DNA of 64,000 nt, from the NCBI GenBank assembly GCA_964270895.1, contig OZ185445.1. One strand, written 5' to 3'. The stretch's first letter is position 1. Each line of letters opens with the position of its first letter. The position numbers and the translations under genes are program-made. Below the pieces are notes generated by a model that had not been told where the DNA came from, searched no databases, and saw only the letters and a program-made list of their open reading frames with translations. Below, piece by piece: positions 10,398 to 56,300 of this stretch. This DNA is from Podarcis filfolensis (taxonomy: Eukaryota).

Positions 10398-10859
10398 TTG
10401 GCTTGTAAATGAACACATGCAAAAACCGACACAGGATGGAAATAGTCTGAGTTCTCCACCCCAACCAAAAAACGTAAGCGGTTTATGGGCCACTCCTCAC
10501 ACAAGAAATGACTTTTAAACTTTAACCAAGGATATCTAGTTTCTGTTACTAAAAGCAGGGGCATTCCATCTCAGCAGGCCCACGTGAACTCCATGTGCAA
10601 CATTCAAAACACTGACAGGCGAGGAGCATTCGCTCCATAAATTTATATAGGAAAACAAGCTTTTCAAGACTACAAGAACAGATGCAAAGGAACTTCTAAC
10701 ATCGTTAGAATGTTAGCATCGTTAGCATGAAACATTTGGCTCAGTTTGCATAATTAGGCAGTTTGGCTGAACCTGTAGTAGCACAGAAAAACCAGAGGAG
10801 GAAGAAAGTGACTACCATCTCCATTCTGGGAGACTGTTCACTCATGCTAACCTATGGTT

Positions 10860-11716
10860 GGAGGATGGATGGCAGCTAACAGATTGAGGTTGAATCCTGA
10901 CAAGACAGAAGTACTGTTTCTGGGGGACAGGAGGCGGGTGGGTGTGGAAGACTTCCTGGTCCTGAATGGGGTAACTGTGCCCCTGAAGGACCAGGTGCGC
11001 TGCCTGGGAGTCATTCTAGACTCAAAGCTGTCCATGGAGGCGCAGGTCAATTCGGTGTCCAGGGCAGCTGTTTATCAGCTCCATCTGGTACGCAGGCTGA
11101 GACCGTGGACTGTCTCGCCAGAGTGGTGCATGCTCTGGTTATCTCTCGCTTGGACTACTGCAGTGCGCTCTATGTGGGGCTACCTTTGAAGGTGGCCCGG
11201 AAACTACAACTAATCCAGAATGCTGCAGCTAGACTGGTGACTGGGGGCGGCTGCCGAGACCATATAACACTGGTTTTGAAAGATCTACACTGGCTCCCAG
11301 TACATTTCCGAGCACAATTCAAAGTGTTGGTGCTGACCTTTAAAGCCCTAAACGGCCTCGGTCCTGTATACCTGAAGGAGCGTCTCCACCTCCATCGTTC
11401 TGCCAGGACACTGAGGTCCAGCGCGCCGAGGGCCTTCTGGCGGTTCCCTCGCTGCAAGAAGCCAAGTTACAGGGAACCAGGCAAAGGGCCTTCTTGGTAG
11501 TGGCACCCGCCCTGTGGAACGCCCTCCTACCAGATGTCAAAGAGAAAAATAACTACCAAACTTTTAGAAGACATCTAAAGGCAGCCCAGTTTAGGGAAGC
11601 TTTTAATGTTTAATAGATTATTGTATTTTAGTGTTTTGTTGGAAGCGCCCAGAGTGGCTGGGGGGACCCAGCCAGATGGGCGGGGTATAAATAACAGATT
11701 ATTATTATATTATTAT
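10860..11716 (+). mobile_element. L2 LINE 3' fragment
   Basis: RT C-terminus LRLNPDKTEV...SRLDYC...LQLIQNAAARL...LHWLPV; ends ATAAATAA-(ATT)n. Possible 7-bp TSD TATGGTT. An internal frameshift is present. Confidence 0.9.
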
Positions 11717-23935: not shown

Positions 23936-24146
23936 TACAGGCAACTCCCAATTTACGTGTGCCTAATCGATGTGCAACCATGCTGAACCCAGAAGTGACT
24001 TTAAAAATGGTAATAAGGGCCCCAAAAGAGCAAAAAAAGAAGAAGAAAGGCAATTTATAAAATATTGGCAGGTGGGGCCTACCAACTCATCAAGAGATAT
24101 TACAGCTCCCTCGCTGAATTTTCAACTTGGGAGGGGGAGTATGTCT

Positions 24147-24448
24147 CAAGACTTCTGGAAGAACTTTCTTTTGGTAAGAGTTGTTCAACAGTGGTATGGA
24201 TTCAAATTACAAGGGAGTAGATTCAGACTAAATATCAGAAAGAACTTTCTGACAGTAAGAGTTGTTGGACAGTGGAACAGACTCCCTCAGGAGGTTGTGG
24301 ACTCTCCTTCCCTGGAGGGTTTTAAGCAGAGTTTGGGGGGGGGGTATCTGTCATAGAGGCTTTAGCTGAGATTCCTGCATTGCAGAGGGTTTGATTAGAT
24401 GACCCTCGGGACTCCTTCCAATGCTACAATTCTATGAATCTATGATTT
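24147..24448 (+). mobile_element. CR1 LINE 3' end
   Basis: RFRLNIRKNFLTVRVVGQWNRLPQEVVDSPSLE peptide and a terminal ATTCTATGA octamer-like repeat. The AAGAACTTTCT...GTAAGAGTTGTT block is duplicated. Confidence 0.88.
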
Positions 24449-29300: not shown

Positions 29301-29574
29301 ATGGAGCTGCTTCACCAAGTATCAGACCACTGGTCCATCTACATCCAGTCTACTCTGATGGACAGCAGCTCTCCACAGTCTCAGGTAGGACTGCTTCCCA
29401 GAATCCACTGTCTGAGATATTTCAACTCAGGGATGGGGAGCCTGTGGCTTTCCTGGTGTTTTGGCCTCTGATCCCCACCAGCTGTTCAGAGGAAAGTGGA
29501 GGTTGGACTTCAGTACCTCCTGAAGGCCCACAAGTTCTCCACACCTGCTTCAACTGGAACTACTGAAGATTGGA

Positions 29575-30225
29575 CCTGGAGCCCATCACCTCCTGGCAAA
29601 TAGAAGGGGAAGAAATGGAGGCAGTGAGAGATTTTACTTTCTTTGGCTCCATTATCACTGCAGATAGTGACAGCAGTCATGAAATTAAAAGACGCCTGCT
29701 TCTTGGGAGAAAAGCAATGACAAACCTAGACAGCTTCTTAAAAAGCAGAGACATCACCTTGCCAACAAAGGTCTGTATAGTTAAAGCTATGGTTTTCCCA
29801 GTAGTGATGTATGGAAGTGAGAGCTGGACCACAAAGAAGGCTGATCACCGAAGAATTGATGCTTTTGAATTATGGTGCTGGAGAAGACTCTTGAGAGTCC
29901 CATGGACTGCAAGAAGATCAAAACTATCCATTCTTAAGGAAATCAGCCCTGAGTGCTCACTGGAAGGACAGATCCTGAAGCTGAGGCTCCAATACTTTGG
30001 CCACCTCATGAGAAGAGAAGACTCCCTGGAAAAGACCCTGATGTTGGGAAAGATGGAGGGCACAAGGAGAAGGGGACGACAGAGGACGAGATGGTTGGAC
30101 AGTGTTCTCAAAGCAACCACTATGAGTCTGACCAAACTGCGGGAGGCAGTGGAAGACAGGAGTGCCTGGCGTGCTCTGTTCCATGGGGTCACGAAGAGTC
30201 GGACATGACTAAACGACTAAACAAC
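29575..30225 (+). mobile_element. RTE-BovB LINE 3' fragment
   Basis: 212-aa uninterrupted frame (ITSWQIEGE...YGSESWT...RIDAFELWCWRRLLRVPWTARRS...KLQYFGHLMRR...WLD) and a 3' end GGGGTCACGAAGAGTCGGACATGACTAAACGACTAAACAAC typical of BovB. Confidence 0.92.
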
Positions 30226-33891: not shown

Positions 33892-34066
33892 GAGACGGAA
33901 GGGAAGAAGGTCACCATGTAAGCTTTGCGCTCTGTAGGCAATCTACCTGAACCATAATTCCAATGGAAACTGCTTTGTTATTGAACCACCTATGCTTCTG
34001 GTTGGTTGGTTTTCAATTAAAGCGACACCAGCAGCAAGAAAAATGGGGAATTAAAAAATTATTTAC

Positions 34067-34517
34067 CTGCAGCGACAGTTCACTTGAGGTTAGGTCTAGA
34101 ATCCCTCCGTCTGAAAGGCGGGAGCGGTACTGCCCTGCTGGAAACGGCGAGTCAGCTTTTTGAAGTCGATCCTCCAGTTTGCTTTCTGTGCTGGATGCCT
34201 CGGGGTGCAACCCATCCATTTCCATAAGGGTGCAATGTCCATTTCCCTGCTCAGTCCTGGAGCTGCCTTTGCCGCTTTTGTTGCCTTTGCTTTCCTTGCC
34301 CCCAGGAGGAGTTCTGGTGATGACGCCAAACTTTCTAGTCCTTTTGCCATTTTGTGCTGTCTTCCCGCTGGGCTCCGAGGTAGGCCGGGCTTTGGGTTCG
34401 TTGCTGCTGCTGTTGCTGTTGTTGCCGTTCGATGGAGGAAGAGGGGCCTTGCGCTTGATGCGACGCAACATGATCAGGTAGATGAAGCCGCCATTCCAGC
34501 ACTGGTCAGCAAGGTAG
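34067..34517 (-). CDS. PDZD2: PDZD2 internal coding exon (end of PDZ1 plus linker), 451 nt, phase 2 to phase 0
   Basis: Acceptor tcatttcttgcag|C TAC CTT, donor CTG CAG|gtaaat. Translates (S)YLADQCWNGGFIYLIMLRRIKRK...GKRTRKFGVITR, matching my recollection of mammalian PDZD2 SYLAEQCWNGGFIYLIMLRR...GKRTRKFGVISR. No stops in frame. Confidence 0.93.
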
Positions 34518-34876
34518 CTGCAAGAAATGAAGGAGATGCACGCATTAAAAACACCCCGTTGCAAAATGCTGTGTGTTAAGCTCTCATCCAAGTCCTTTAT
34601 GTTGGAGGGAATGTCAACAGAGGTTCATATTTCCTTATGTGGTGAGAATGTAAGCCTGTGCAATTATTTTGGGAAACGGTCTTTGAAGAAGTCTCTTCTA
34701 TTACAAGACAAGATGATACAACCTGACCCAAGGACTGCTTTATTAAATCTGTTTATAGATGACCATAATAATTTACTGCTTAAGGACCAACTAACCTTTT
34801 CCACATCTGCAGCTAAAAATGTATTTACACAATATTGGAAAACAGCTACTAACATACATACCGTAATGTTCTATGG

Positions 34877-37210: not shown

Positions 37211-37907
37211 CTGGCAGCCAGGAAGCCAAACAGGACCCCAAACCCCACTTTTGGCAGCTTGTAAAGTGCTTGAAACCAGCCAAGCTTTCAATGAATCTGG
37301 CCTCAGAGTATTCAGAGGGTTTTGTGTTTTATTTTTCAGTGTTTAAAATCCAAATACCATAAGGATTTCAGTTGGGGTTATACGGGAATTTGCTACGCGG
37401 TTCACTCTGTATATGTTCCTCTCATTATTAGCTTGGAAGCCCCGGGCTCTCATGGAAAGCTATTTATTTTTCAGTGCTGCTTTCATATTTCAAGGCGGGA
37501 TTTTTGTTTTGTTTTTGGGGGTGGGGAAGAAATGAAATATTATTGCTAACCAGATTTCAGTTGAGCTGAGATATTGAAAACAGAAACTGCAATCACTGCT
37601 GTAGAACTGGAATATTCACTTCAGTTGGCGATGGGTGGATTCAATTAAAATCCTTGACATTAAGAAGCTGGTAACTGATTCCACTTAACCAACCAGTTCT
37701 TAGTACTTCTGAGTCACTATGCTAAATCATTATACCACAGATTCTCTAACATTTCTGCAGTTGGTCTCATTAGTACAGGATTTCAACAGTACTCAGGTGG
37801 TTCTCTGAATGTAGCTGCGATGGGATTGGGCACATGTAGCCTTCAGCCCCAACCCCAAAGAGAGAGGGGAAACCCCAAACCAACCAATGAGGGCTTAGCA
37901 TGCTCAA

Positions 37908-38190
37908 TGTCATGGACGGGTTGGCTGTAGAGGAATGGTGGGGGGGACCAGCTGGGGAACCCCCAGGGGAAGAAGGCTCAGAGCCCAGGGATTGGTGGTG
38001 GGACAACAAAGAGGGCATTGAGGGAGAAGACTGGGGAGAGGAATTGTTGGAAGCTGAAGAGGTAACAAGACTTAGTGAGCTGGGAGAGTCTGTGGCAGAG
38101 AGAAGTCCGGAAGCAGGGGAAACAGCTGAAGCAGGAGAGGAGGAAGGGCAAGAGGGAGAGATGAATCCATCCTACTCCCTTGACCTCTAA
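37908..38190 (+). mobile_element. 5' part of a second LTR-like element with an acidic, Trp-rich ORF
   Basis: Begins TGTCA. Purine-rich open frame MDGLAVEEWWGGPAGEPPGEEGSEPRDWWWDNKEG...; no matching 3' end or TSD found. Confidence 0.55.
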
Positions 38191-46400: not shown

Positions 46401-46637
46401 TATGGGCTGGAACAAAGCTCCAAACAGAGTAATCCAATATGTTAACACCTCAATGTGCTGGAGGGTAAGCATGCCTAAGTTACAGTAGACTATTGGGGCC
46501 TTCTATGCTACAGTGGTACCTTGGTTTTCAAACATGTCCATTGACGAACGTTTCGGAACTCAAATGCCGTAAACCCGGAAGTAAATGCTTCCGTTTTTGA
46601 ATGCGCCTTGGAAGTTGAACAGTTTCTGCTGAGTGTA

Positions 46638-47447
46638 TGTCAGGGGCTCGGGAGCAGGAGCACAGGGGAGAGAGGAAATGGAGAGCGAAGGGGAAGAATC
46701 CGAGGGCAGCGTAGGGGAGTATGACAGTGACCCGAGAGATTCCATGAGCTTCTCCAGCGAATCAGAAGATTCCCAGAAGGGGGCGCCGATGGTCAGGGCA
46801 AGGGGGGTCCCAGGGGGGACGCACCAGAAACAAGGAGACAGCGGGGAACCCCAAAGCAGCAGTGGGGGATCAGGACCAGTTTCCCCACCAGAGCGTAGTG
46901 GGGGGGAAGAGTCACATGTGTCAGGGCCAGCGTCTCCTCCAGCGGGGAGAGAGAGTGAGTCAGGGCTGACCACGCCTCCAACGGAGGGGAGGTCAGTTGC
47001 AGCTAGCCCCCCCAGAGGGGGAAGCAGTGACAGCAGCAGTGAAATGGTCAGGAGGAAAGTTACTGGCTGGGCGCGCGCGCCAAGTTCAAATGTGCAGGCG
47101 CGGGGGACAGCAGGAGACCCGGATTGGGAACCAGCTCCTAAAGCCCGCCGGAGGGAGGGGGAAGGCTCAGGGGATTCAGCGTCAGAAGAGTCTAGAAAGG
47201 GCGAGACCCCGACGGACAGGCAGAACCAGAGGCGGAAAGAACAGAGGAAGAGGTGGAGTAAGGCTAGAGTCTTAAACTGGTGTCTGGGGGGAGGAGACTC
47301 AGACGGAGCATCAGCGGTCTAAAGTTTGAGACGTAGAGCTGCACGCTGCGGCTCTGGAAGTGAAACTGAACTTCAATAAAGACTTTCGTACTTAACAACG
47401 AAGCGGCGTTGGTCCTTTGTGAGCTGGGACCTCGGGCAGCTCTGACA
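46638..47447 (+). mobile_element. Solo LTR (Gypsy/ERV-type), 810 bp
   Basis: Starts TGTCAG and ends CTGACA (inverted termini). Flanked by a perfect 5-bp TSD GTGTA (46633-46637 / 47448-47452). AATAAA at 47375-47380. CpG-rich and undecayed. Interrupts a pogo-type MITE. Confidence 0.9.
46678..47322 (+). CDS. Putative 214-aa LTR-encoded protein (S/E/G-rich, disordered, basic C-terminus)
   Basis: ATG in good Kozak context (gaaATGg). The frame is open from the LTR 5' edge to TAA at 47320-47322, and the other plus-strand frames are interrupted. Function and expression are unknown. Confidence 0.4.
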   Translation: MESEGEESEGSVGEYDSDPRDSMSFSSESEDSQKGAPMVRARGVPGGTHQKQGDSGEPQSSSGGSGPVSPPERSGGEESHVSGPASPPAGRESESGLTTPPTEGRSVAASPPRGGSSDSSSEMVRRKVTGWARAPSSNVQARGTAGDPDWEPAPKARRREGEGSGDSASEESRKGETPTDRQNQRRKEQRKRWSKARVLNWCLGGGDSDGASAV

Positions 47448-48914
47448 GTGTATATGTTATTTTTCTCAATTTTCTCAATTAAATTTGCATGCCACCCTTT
47501 GCGCCTCGGTTTTCAAACGTTTCGGAACCCAAACGGTCTTCCAGAATGGATTATGTTTGAAAACCGAGGTACCACTATACTTTCATTTAACACCTAGCCA
47601 CACCGGTAGCAAACCTTCCCAGCAAGCGTGGCATTTAGTGCCACTCAGGTGTGTAGCATAATATATCTATGGTGCCTTAAACACCTTTGTGGGGTTTACC
47701 TCTAGCCAGGAAGCAGCCAAGGGTGGGAGGGACAAACTGGCATGTTCCCTCCCTCTTGATTGATCGTTCGGGAAGTTCAAAAGCTTTCTTCTGCCCGAAC
47801 ACCACAGCGACCGATGCCAACAGATATTGGCGCACTTAGGGATCCGCAGAGTGTTCGCAGTTTGCGTGGCATACCTCAGCAACTCAGCATTTTGGCTAAT
47901 CTACTTTATTTACATATAAACACACATGGAGCACTGCAACACGGCTTCTCTCTCTCTAGCATCAGACAGGACAGAGAATGAACAAAGGATAATAGTCCCA
48001 CTTCACAGAACACAGTAACACAAACATCCTGTCTCTGTCACTTCCCACTTTGTGGAGTCAAAGCATACAGCGTCATGTGAAAGACAACAATCCCATGACT
48101 GCAATCACGGAGCAGGAATTCTAACAGTGCAGACCCCCCATCCAAGGCATAAACCTGCTTGTCCCCGGCAAGGTGCGTCACAGACTTTTGTGGGACCCTG
48201 TCCATAGGCTGGCCACCCATGACTTTCCTTATTTTATTGGCTCACTGAGCAGATGCACAGCAACAGTTCCAATATGGTTATGTTGCCCTAAGTGACAATG
48301 ACAGTTCTGCTCAGAAGACCACATTGCCAGTAAGCACATCCAAGGGATTAAATATACAGGCGCACTGAAATACACGGGCAATATTTTATTTTTATTTTTT
48401 TGTGAGCTGGGCTTTGATTGTCACATCTCTTCAAATCAAATGTTTGTCCTAGTAACAACAGTCCACATTCCCAGGCAGCAGCGGCTGCTTCAGACTGCTG
48501 TCTTTTCTAAAACATGGGCTTCATCTGCCTGTGTGTTTCATCAGCTACCTAAAGTGGTCAGATAGCGGTCACCCATTAGTCAGAGTTCTTAAGTTTAAAA
48601 GCCCTGGGTTATGACATCTATAATCTTGACAAAACACGCTGACACACAGCTCCAGTCCAGCCTGCAAGGCCTTGACACCAGCACAATCGAGGTCTCGGCA
48701 TCAGCAGCACAGAAGGGCCCTTGTGAATTGTTAAAAATTAAAACTAGCTTGCATTTTTAAAGTGGCAGGGATGAGGTAGCCTCAAAGTCCTTTACATCAC
48801 TTGCAACTCCTGCCTCATCTGAAGAGACTTCTTATCACGCGACTGCTACACCAAAGATGATGTGTTCGAGGCCAAGATGGGCCTGCAAGGAACAATGGGA
48901 GAATCTGTCAATTT

Positions 48915-54714: not shown

Positions 54715-56300
54715 AATTGTATGATGAGAAGGGAATGCATGCCCATTCCACCTTGCTGAGGATTTTTATAAAATGTCCTATACCAGCACATAAATACTAT
54801 TCCCTGGACACAGAATTCATGGCATCCTTAAAATTCCCTCCCGTGGATAAACCATTGTCCTTATTGGTTTCAAAAAGCAGATTCTTTTCCAATTGGAAAT
54901 GCTTTTCAATTTGGAAATGTAAAGAAATTCTTTTCCAATTTGGAAATGTAAAGAAACTGAAGGTACATTCTTTCACCTTTGGTGGACGTGCCCAAGAATT
55001 AAGGCTTTCTGGGAAATGATCTATAATGAAATGAAAAAGGTATTTAAATATACCTTCCTGAAGAAACCAGAGGCCTTCCTTCTGGGCATTGTCGGCCAAT
55101 TGGTGCCAAAGAAGGACAGAACTTTCTTTATGTATGCAACAATAGCAGCAAGAATACTTATTGCGAAGTATTGGAAGACACAAGATCTACCCACCCTGGA
55201 AGAGTGGCAGATGAAGGTGATGGACTATATGGAATTGGCAGAAATGACTGGCAGAATCCGAGACCTGGGAGAAGAGTTGGTGGAGGAAGACTGGAAGAAA
55301 TTTAAAGACTATCTTCAGAAATATTGTAAAATTAATGAATGTTAAAATTATGTTCGGATTGGCAATAAGTGGTATTCAGCAACAAAAATTAATAAGAATA
55401 TGCAAAAATGAATTGATAAATGGATGAAAAGATAGAGTCATAATATGTTAGGATATAGAGCTAAGATAAATGATAGAGGGTAAGGATTTGCTGAATTGAT
55501 TATGTAAATGGGAATGCAAAAAGGGGAGGTGTGAGGAGGTCAAGGAAACAAGCAAATGAGCTTAAAAACATCAAAAAAGGGATTTGTTTTTTGTATTTTT
55601 CTATTCTTTCTTTTTTATGTATTTTTAATTTTTTTTTCTTGGTTTTTCTTTTATTCTGTAAACCTTTGTTTTTTGTAAAACTCTAATAAATATCTTTAAA
55701 AAAAAAGCAGATTCTTAATTTAAAGACCCAGCTGACAAGCGTTATCGATTATGCATTAAGAAGACCACATGAGGCTACTGCCATTTCCGTAAGAGCAGTG
55801 TGCTTCCATAATCTGGGCTGATGGCACGTTTAACAACCCACAGGGCGATCATCCTAGAAGTAGACAGACCTTTAAAAAGATTTCCAGGGCTTCTGCATTT
55901 GTGGCAGGCGCCACCCTAGATTCCACCGAATTTTGGGGGTGCACAATGGCTGCACAGATGGTGGCATGCCATACCTTGTGGTTAAGACATTGGGAGGTGG
56001 GTTCCCAGTTAAATATAAACCTAGTTACTGTGCCTTTTGCTGGAAGCCAATTATTCAGAGAAGAGACCCTGAAAGACATCCTAACGGAGTCTAGGGATAA
56101 AATGAAAGCACTTGTGACACAGAAGCTGGACAGGAAACATACTAGATGATACTCTCCATACAAATTCTCCCATTCTTATAACCCACAAACCTATACTCCA
56201 CCATATAACCAAACCTTTAACCAGCCCTTTCAAGCATTCGACAACACCGAATATTCAAAGGATGCCAATGTGATCAGAAGTACTTGAGAGAGACACTGTT
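54715..56300 (+). mobile_element. Degenerate DIRS1-like gag (ORF1) remnant, interrupted by an L1
   Basis: Rejoined, frameshifted peptides LKFPPVDKPLSLLVS / KDPADK / AFVAGATLDS...MAAQMVACHTLWLRHW...VPFAGSQLF...LKDILTESRDK fit the vertebrate DIRS1 gag (LAP2alpha-like domain) pattern. Confidence 0.7.
54887..55701 (+). mobile_element. 5'-truncated L1-clade LINE
   Basis: ORF 55016-55345 resembles an L1 ORF2 C-terminus (ATIAARILIAKYWK...PTLEEW...EDWKKFKDYL). Followed by a 3' UTR, AATAAA at 55685 and an A-tail. 15-bp TSD AAAAAGCAGATTCTT (54872-54886 / 55702-55716). Confidence 0.88.

Follow-up and report, generated by a model that had tools for sequence, protein, structure and literature searches.

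The solo LTR at 46638-47447 of the DNA studied here carries a reading frame that stays open over most of its length. This raises the question of whether an LTR in a lizard genome can be protein-coding sequence and, if so, to which gene the protein belongs. The window, i.e. the whole stretch of DNA analysed, comprises 64,000 nucleotides of Podarcis filfolensis (assembly GCA_964270895.1, contig OZ185445.1), and all positions refer to it. A preliminary description had proposed an accessory gene residing in the LTR, like those known from retroviruses. Our data indicate, with a probability of roughly 0.9, that the frame encodes the C-terminus of Pol and makes up the final ~200-230 codons of a Gag-Pol polyprotein.

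Results

The insertion and its copies

46638..47447, plus strand: solo LTR of a self-priming Ty3/gypsy element, probably a chromovirus of the Tf1/sushi type; copies 97-98% identical occur genome-wide, and 6.64-kb gag-pol elements carry this LTR at both ends
46633..46637, plus strand: 5' copy of the 5-bp target-site duplication (TSD) GTGTA, from the window sequence
47448..47452, plus strand: 3' copy of the 5-bp TSD GTGTA, from the window sequence
47375..47380, plus strand: AATAAA polyadenylation signal, 3' of the stop codon in the window sequence; the sister subfamily keeps an AATAAA
46509..47579, no strand assigned: MITE-like host element invaded by the LTR element, which spans ~250 bp when the LTR is subtracted and has terminal inverted repeats of 27 nt

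The solo LTR is 810 bp long and has the termini TGTCAG...CTGACA. These, the GTGTA duplication and the AATAAA at 47375 had been listed before, and all were found again in the sequence. The inverted arms of the host repeat (46509-46535 and 47553-47579) are 93% complementary, and we take its termini to be Tc1/mariner-like. The uninterrupted form of this repeat is represented by a contig of run X6, which joins 46635 to 47458. No sign of a host function was seen for the LTR locus of the window. In four contig sets guessed to be RNA, the LTR and the flanking repeat were covered by family-level matches only.

A genome search with the LTR returned 2333 first-look candidates, and the best 40, which were scored, showed 97-100% identity. 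An exact 5-bp TSD was present at 21 of 30 fetched loci and a TSD with one mismatch at 4, while 5 were ends of longer elements. Mean divergence among 23 ungapped close copies was 2.45%. LTR pairs in full-length copies of the window's subfamily are 98.4% identical, against 100% in the sister subfamily. The window's subfamily is the older of the two, and the earlier designation of the element as young holds only in a relative sense.

Elsewhere in the window, two minus-strand stretches that contain no stop, of 203 codons (34013-34624) and 133 codons (37770-38171), are possible host exons. Frames resembling the ends of LINE reverse transcriptases, as judged by eye, lie at 10851-11500, 24100-24356, 29567-30208 and 54923-55345.

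A long open frame within the LTR

46639..47322, plus strand: probable LTR-encoded C-terminal end of Gag-Pol/integrase, 227 codons and stop, from continuity with pol in the sister subfamily, P0008, P0127 and P0004 and a dN/dS of 0.19
46678..46680, plus strand: ATG inside the frame with a favourable Kozak context (G at -3 and +4), subfamily-specific, present in 29 of 30 close copies

The frame of 227 codons ends in a TAA at 47320-47322, and from the ATG at 46678 it encodes 214 amino acids. The longest open runs in the remaining two plus-strand frames are only 55 and 101 codons, so that both the single long frame and its 214-residue product stand as first reported. A minus-strand frame, which the preliminary description did not mention, is likewise stop-free across this stretch (46560-47318, 252 codons). 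Only 109 of the 810 bases of the LTR are T, and it had been cautioned that a T-poor strand by itself has fewer stops. In dinucleotide shuffles of the LTR, a plus-strand run of at least 227 codons was rare (19 of 3000), but 56 of 3000 shuffles had such a run on either strand. The length of the frame on its own is therefore moderately unusual and suggestive, not decisive, and the weight of the coding case rests on comparison with relatives.

Of the 30 fetched loci, 20 have an intact 214-aa ORF, 9 have a broken one and 1 has a slightly extended version; these loci were the best-scoring copies, which biases the sample towards intact ORFs. An ATG equivalent to 46678 is missing in the sister subfamily (L096, L098) and in P0002, P0004 and P0008, and is present in P0001.

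Full-length elements and their classification

A search for full-length elements had been suggested earlier, and it was successful. Those of the window's subfamily are 6.64 kb long and flanked by the LTR type of the window. Pfam searches of two frames (L031 and L032) gave the order LTR, Ty3 capsid, zinc knuckle, protease, reverse transcriptase (RT), RNase H, integrase and Tf2-type SH3, followed by a chromodomain-like region, an acidic stretch, the polypurine tract (PPT) and the LTR. In full-length copies no env was found; the integrase region reaches directly to the PPT and leaves no space for it. With gag followed by PR-RT-RH-IN between LTRs and without env, the element is a Ty3/gypsy LTR retrotransposon. 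A copia-like integrase-RT frame of another element is seemingly inserted in the protease region of L034 and L035.

A 57-aa chromodomain fragment matched PF00385 with E = 6e-4 and 20.1 bits, under the cut-off of 25.1. The region aligns with chromodomains of relatives, and the sister families P0012 and P0018 exceed the PF00385 cut-off. According to PMC3605345, the cage of a type I chromodomain consists of three aromatic residues, Y, W and Y. The corresponding columns are N, R and T in L096, P0006, P0007, P0009 and P0010, and N, K and F in P0008. Judged from these residues, the element does not have a type I chromodomain and its aromatic cage has been lost. In a quick RT-RH-IN tree of 39 rows (21 picked for their names and 18 others, with no named Tf1, sushi or CRM sequence among them) the element groups with squamate elements (support 91) within a tetrapod clade (98). 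The named relatives nearest to it are from Podarcis.

The polyprotein frame enters the 3' LTR

The sister subfamily was retrieved by a genome search with the diverged homologue P0003. By hand count, its 150 scored matches form two groups: for 70 the open frame around the match measures 1,164-1,887 codons, and for 80 it measures 197-399 codons. The matches are mostly paired ~5.8 kb apart, one in a long and one in a short frame. Five sister elements were fetched, and each has a pair of LTRs that are 100% identical. Their long frame, which is Gag-Pol in three elements and Pol in two, continues across the PPT into the 3' LTR and terminates in all five at one shared position. That stop lies 195 codons inside the LTR, as measured in two elements. 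With a length of up to 1,868 codons, the frame starts in gag or protease and includes integrase. The supposition that the frame begins in the internal region and passes the PPT is hence demonstrated by these sister elements. In three of them (L096, L097, L100) gag and pol are fused over 1,868 codons, and in the other two (L098, L099) there are overlapping frames of 383 and 1,512 codons; the LTRs of all are near-identical. An equivalent fusion of Pol and tail exists in P0008 of Podarcis muralis, in P0127 (58% identical over the tail) and in P0004 of P. lilfordi. It is because of this continuous frame in the sister subfamily, P0008, P0127 and P0004 that the LTR frame is considered to be the end of the polyprotein. 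The identical LTR pairs show that the family was mobile very recently.

Selection on the LTR-encoded part

A measurement of dN/dS between subfamilies had been proposed as a check on coding. Over 195 aligned codons of the window and sister LTRs, dS was 1.42 and dN 0.27, giving a ratio of 0.19 (bootstrap 0.10-0.30) for a single pair of subfamilies with dS close to saturation. Four shifted frames of the same LTR pair gave 1.2-1.7. The in-register antisense frame gave 0.29, which is expected because it shares third positions with the sense frame. The last 95 codons, which are gap-free, were compared without an alignment step because protein-guided alignment can bias dN/dS; here mismatches numbered 19, 23 and 48 by codon position (p = 7e-5) and the ratio was 0.18. 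For scale, dN/dS was 0.04-0.06 in the RT, RNase H and integrase core, 0.06 in the chromodomain-like region and 0.32 in the acidic stretch before the LTR. The frame and its terminal motif are retained at 57-64% amino-acid identity. These substitution patterns indicate that the LTR frame is coding and is under purifying selection between subfamilies. Singleton changes in the close LTR copies gave a pN/pS of 0.84 (12 plus-strand copies) and of 0.48 (23/29, ungapped). The two tallies disagree, and the solo copies are not clearly neutral.

Junction frame in older copies

In the window's own subfamily the frame at the junction is variable. The 58 usable full-length loci collapse to 30 distinct flanks, one insertion accounting for 19 rows (some fetched twice). 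Of the 30 loci taken for the junction count 29 were usable, one having no LTR. The pol motif nearest the PPT was in frame with the LTR at 13 of the 29 3' ends, and the two shifted states occurred at 7 and 9. In-frame is the commonest junction state, also found at 7 of 15 distinct sites after the one amplified locus was set aside. The chromodomain was in frame with the LTR frame at 11 of the 29 3' ends, and its region at 8 of 30 in a junction-biased sample. Motif frames were preferred as the measure because a tally of G-run length overlooked further upstream runs. Copies of the one amplified insertion differ from each other in G-run length, a sign of post-insertion slippage or of errors in assembly. 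The P. muralis sequences P0009 and P0010 also depart from the frame early. Given the frequent out-of-frame junctions, the tail may be dispensable in cis.

Among 40 older full-length copies, 26 are on contig C19, and 12 of the other 14 lie less than 1 Mb from contig ends. This clustering probably reflects survival in low-recombination DNA, not targeting. For several gypsy families, most of the older full-length copies reside on C19 (43 Mb), some of them at near-identical duplicated loci, and this contig is possibly a W chromosome. None of 150 matches of the youngest subfamily was on C19.

Predicted promoter and self-primer

47271..47276, plus strand: TATA-like CTTAAA, ~30 nt before the presumed start site, with a synonymous change in the sister subfamily
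47301..47311, plus strand: 11-nt self-primer site whose complement is the primer-binding site in full-length copies; putative U3/R boundary

In full-length copies, the sequence following the 5' LTR is the 11-nt complement of 47301-47311 and is not a tRNA site. In the sister subfamily 4 of the 11 positions of the self-primer are changed, and each of these changes has its counterpart in the primer-binding site. A 10-11 nt complement of their own was also seen in two further families, and self-primer pairing is thus found in four families. Such complementarity points to self-priming of the Tf1/sushi kind. By analogy with Tf1 we take the RNA to start near 47301, which is 7 codons before the stop of the LTR frame. 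It had been suggested that each solo LTR disperses a copy of the gene. With the start so placed, a solo LTR would hold a promoterless fragment. Expression of the frame from a solo LTR is unlikely because the promoter is predicted to sit where the frame ends and the internal ATG is not conserved.

Properties and distribution of the tail

47140..47282, plus strand: best-conserved C-terminal block, with two basic clusters ~24 residues apart and a predicted helix bearing the motif W-S-x4-L-x-W-C

In the element ~350 residues follow the chromodomain, mostly of low complexity with short conserved blocks, and 195-227 of them are encoded by the LTR. The two basic clusters resemble a bipartite nuclear localization signal (NLS). 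An AlphaFold model from a 6-row alignment showed no confident fold and one helix at residues 195-216 (pLDDT 49, pTM 0.13). The tail is accordingly predicted, at low confidence, to be disordered apart from one basic C-terminal helix, and this agrees with the disordered product and basic C-terminal segment expected at first. Pfam gave no family for the 214-aa ORF. A protein atlas had no usable match for the ORF or for the 364-aa tail and was uninformative. Five relatives of the tail were present among 1.84 billion representatives, none of them from plants.

Tails of relatives were surveyed in 122 proteins, with 5 dropped for want of the anchor motif; the tail values of P0086 and P0088 are misaligned. 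In 111 other integrase relatives the stretch after the chromodomain has a median of 11 residues, and it exceeds 100 in 8, of which five are squamate and two are from frogs. The frog chromovirus Pol models P0048 and P0071 continue past the chromodomain for 138 and 249 residues. Of two more families in the genome, one extends 100 codons into a 409-bp 3' LTR (three elements, the boundary being over-extended in one), and the other extends 120 codons into a 568-bp 3' LTR (one element). The family with 409-bp LTRs has a similar basic and S-x4-L-x-W end and a stop ~20 nt past the self-primer site; in that with 568-bp LTRs the stop precedes this site. Across three lineages, tails of 132 residues go with 3 cage aromatics, tails of 168-194 with 1-2 and tails of 352-366 with none. 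The tails of P0018, P0021, P0023 and L143 end in RRSAR(L/I), a candidate chromatin anchor, which we take to resemble the nucleosome-binding core of HMGN proteins.

Discussion

The present study indicates that the open frame of the LTR encodes the C-terminus of Pol. On this reading, transcription would begin at ~47301 in the 5' LTR, so that genomic RNA would have U3 at its 3' end only, where it would be translated as the end of Pol. Ribosomes would finish Pol ~20 nt into R, before the AATAAA. Reverse transcription would then place U3 at both ends of the element, and every LTR would carry the frame. Recombination between two LTRs probably left the promoterless solo fragment of the window, as its TSD suggests.

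The closest competitor of this reading differs from it in processing only. The tail could be made in Gag-Pol, released by protease and then act as a free nuclear protein, for instance against host silencing. The ~350 mostly low-complexity residues with short conserved blocks after the chromodomain would suit such a product, and retroelement polyproteins are in general processed by their own protease. However, no cleavage site was identified, and in PMC7459421 and PMC3059260 the equivalents in Ty1 and plant CRM are treated as part of integrase. Release of the tail is on balance improbable, and the tail likely stays on integrase.

Much weaker is the proposal of a separate U3 gene translated from ATG 46678 on a message of its own, at least in the window's subfamily. 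The retention of this well-placed ATG in nearly all close copies, the whole ORF in two-thirds of them and the start of P0001 at the matching ATG would favour it, and more than half of the sampled 3' ends of this subfamily are out of frame with pol. On the other hand, the ATG is missing in the youngest subfamily and in three further relatives, and conservation begins at the first LTR codon, 5' of the ATG. The out-of-frame junctions include both possible shifts and differ among copies of one amplified locus, and the presumed promoter is at the end of the frame. An accessory gene with its own conserved start, separate from pol, was rejected, since the ATG is not conserved and the frame is continuous with pol; even the subfamily-restricted version has very little in its favour. 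That the frame is open by chance on a T-poor, G-rich strand, or through promoter constraint on the DNA, with a functionless tail, is hardly credible: base composition, the equally long minus frame and the 0.6-2% of shuffles that attain its length speak for it, but the third-position excess, the dN/dS of 0.18-0.19 (shared third positions explaining the antisense value), the retained frame and terminal motif, and a TATA-like word whose change is synonymous and leaves the residue of the codon intact all argue against it.

If the LTR frame is the end of integrase, the tail would help the integration complex to enter the nucleus and to be tethered to chromatin. This role is proposed by analogy with the C-terminal bipartite NLS and targeting domain of Ty1 integrase and with the LTR-encoded CR motif of CRM. 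For nuclear import the chances appear about even, and a part in choosing the integration site is less probable. It is tentatively suggested, from sequence comparison, that lizard sushi-type elements independently reached the CRM solution, in which the methyl-lysine cage of the chromodomain was lost while a targeting module grew in U3, and that the basic and S-x4-L-x-W end shared by two lineages binds a host chromatin factor; the odds are rather against it. If true, a single stretch of DNA would be promoter/enhancer and at the same time code for an integrase tether. The vertebrate LTR described here has its entire U3 as selected protein-coding sequence, and it could offer a natural test, parallel to plant CRM, of how integrases gain targeting or import modules. 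It would also explain S/E/G/P-rich 'uncharacterized' wall-lizard gene models (P0004, P0005, P0128) as LTR fragments.

Coding sequence overlapping U3 is also a feature of MMTV sag, HIV nef and the foamy virus bel region, but these are separate retroviral genes on their own messages. The lizard frame is in-frame Pol of an env-less retrotransposon, the integrase end of a Ty3/gypsy element, probably a chromovirus, and not of a retrovirus, and the comparison with an accessory gene has to be given up. A nearer likeness is Ty1 integrase, which carries a bipartite NLS and, in the linker, a targeting domain, while Ty5 has a targeting hexapeptide (PMC7459421). The lizard integrase likewise ends in two basic clusters with an acidic linker, as far as sequence tells, although Ty1 and Ty5 are copia elements. 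Tf1/sushi chromoviruses share with it the domain order, the Tf2-type SH3, the chromodomain (in the lizard element a chromodomain-like region), the self-primer, the 5' end TGTYANR and the 5-bp TSD, going by PMC6317226, which describes the self-priming pattern, and PMC3601003, which gives the sushi end motifs and mentions neither 'ORF' nor 'reading frame'. However, most of these relatives stop just past the chromodomain, whereas the lizard element adds ~350 residues.

The plant CRM group A comes closest. Its members are Ty3/gypsy chromoviruses in which the polyprotein frame continues into the 3' LTR and the CR motif is LTR-encoded (Neumann et al. 2011, PMC3059260; Weber et al. 2013, PMC3605345); the lizard element likewise has a Pol frame that enters the 3' LTR and an integrase C-terminus encoded there. 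But CRM has the CR motif and no chromodomain, whereas the lizard element keeps a cage-less chromodomain-like region (dN/dS 0.06) and a tail without a Pfam match. CRM primes with tRNA-Met and the lizard element, judged by its sequence, primes itself. CRM is centromeric, whereas solo and young full-length lizard copies occur along chromosome interiors, and a CRM-like targeting to centromeres was rejected because of this dispersal. The lizard element is not a member of CRM, and the likeness may be a convergence. The UniRef entry A0A670KNJ5 (P0008, Podarcis muralis, 'Gypsy retrotransposon integrase-like protein 1') is an automatic model that includes Pol and the entire tail, and its annotation is silent on the LTR origin of the tail. 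For Pol running into the 3' LTR, the literature search found reports in plant elements only and none in vertebrate ones, though Repbase or Dfam may note it. Extension of Pol into the 3' LTR is already known from plant CRM, and the case described here is from a vertebrate.
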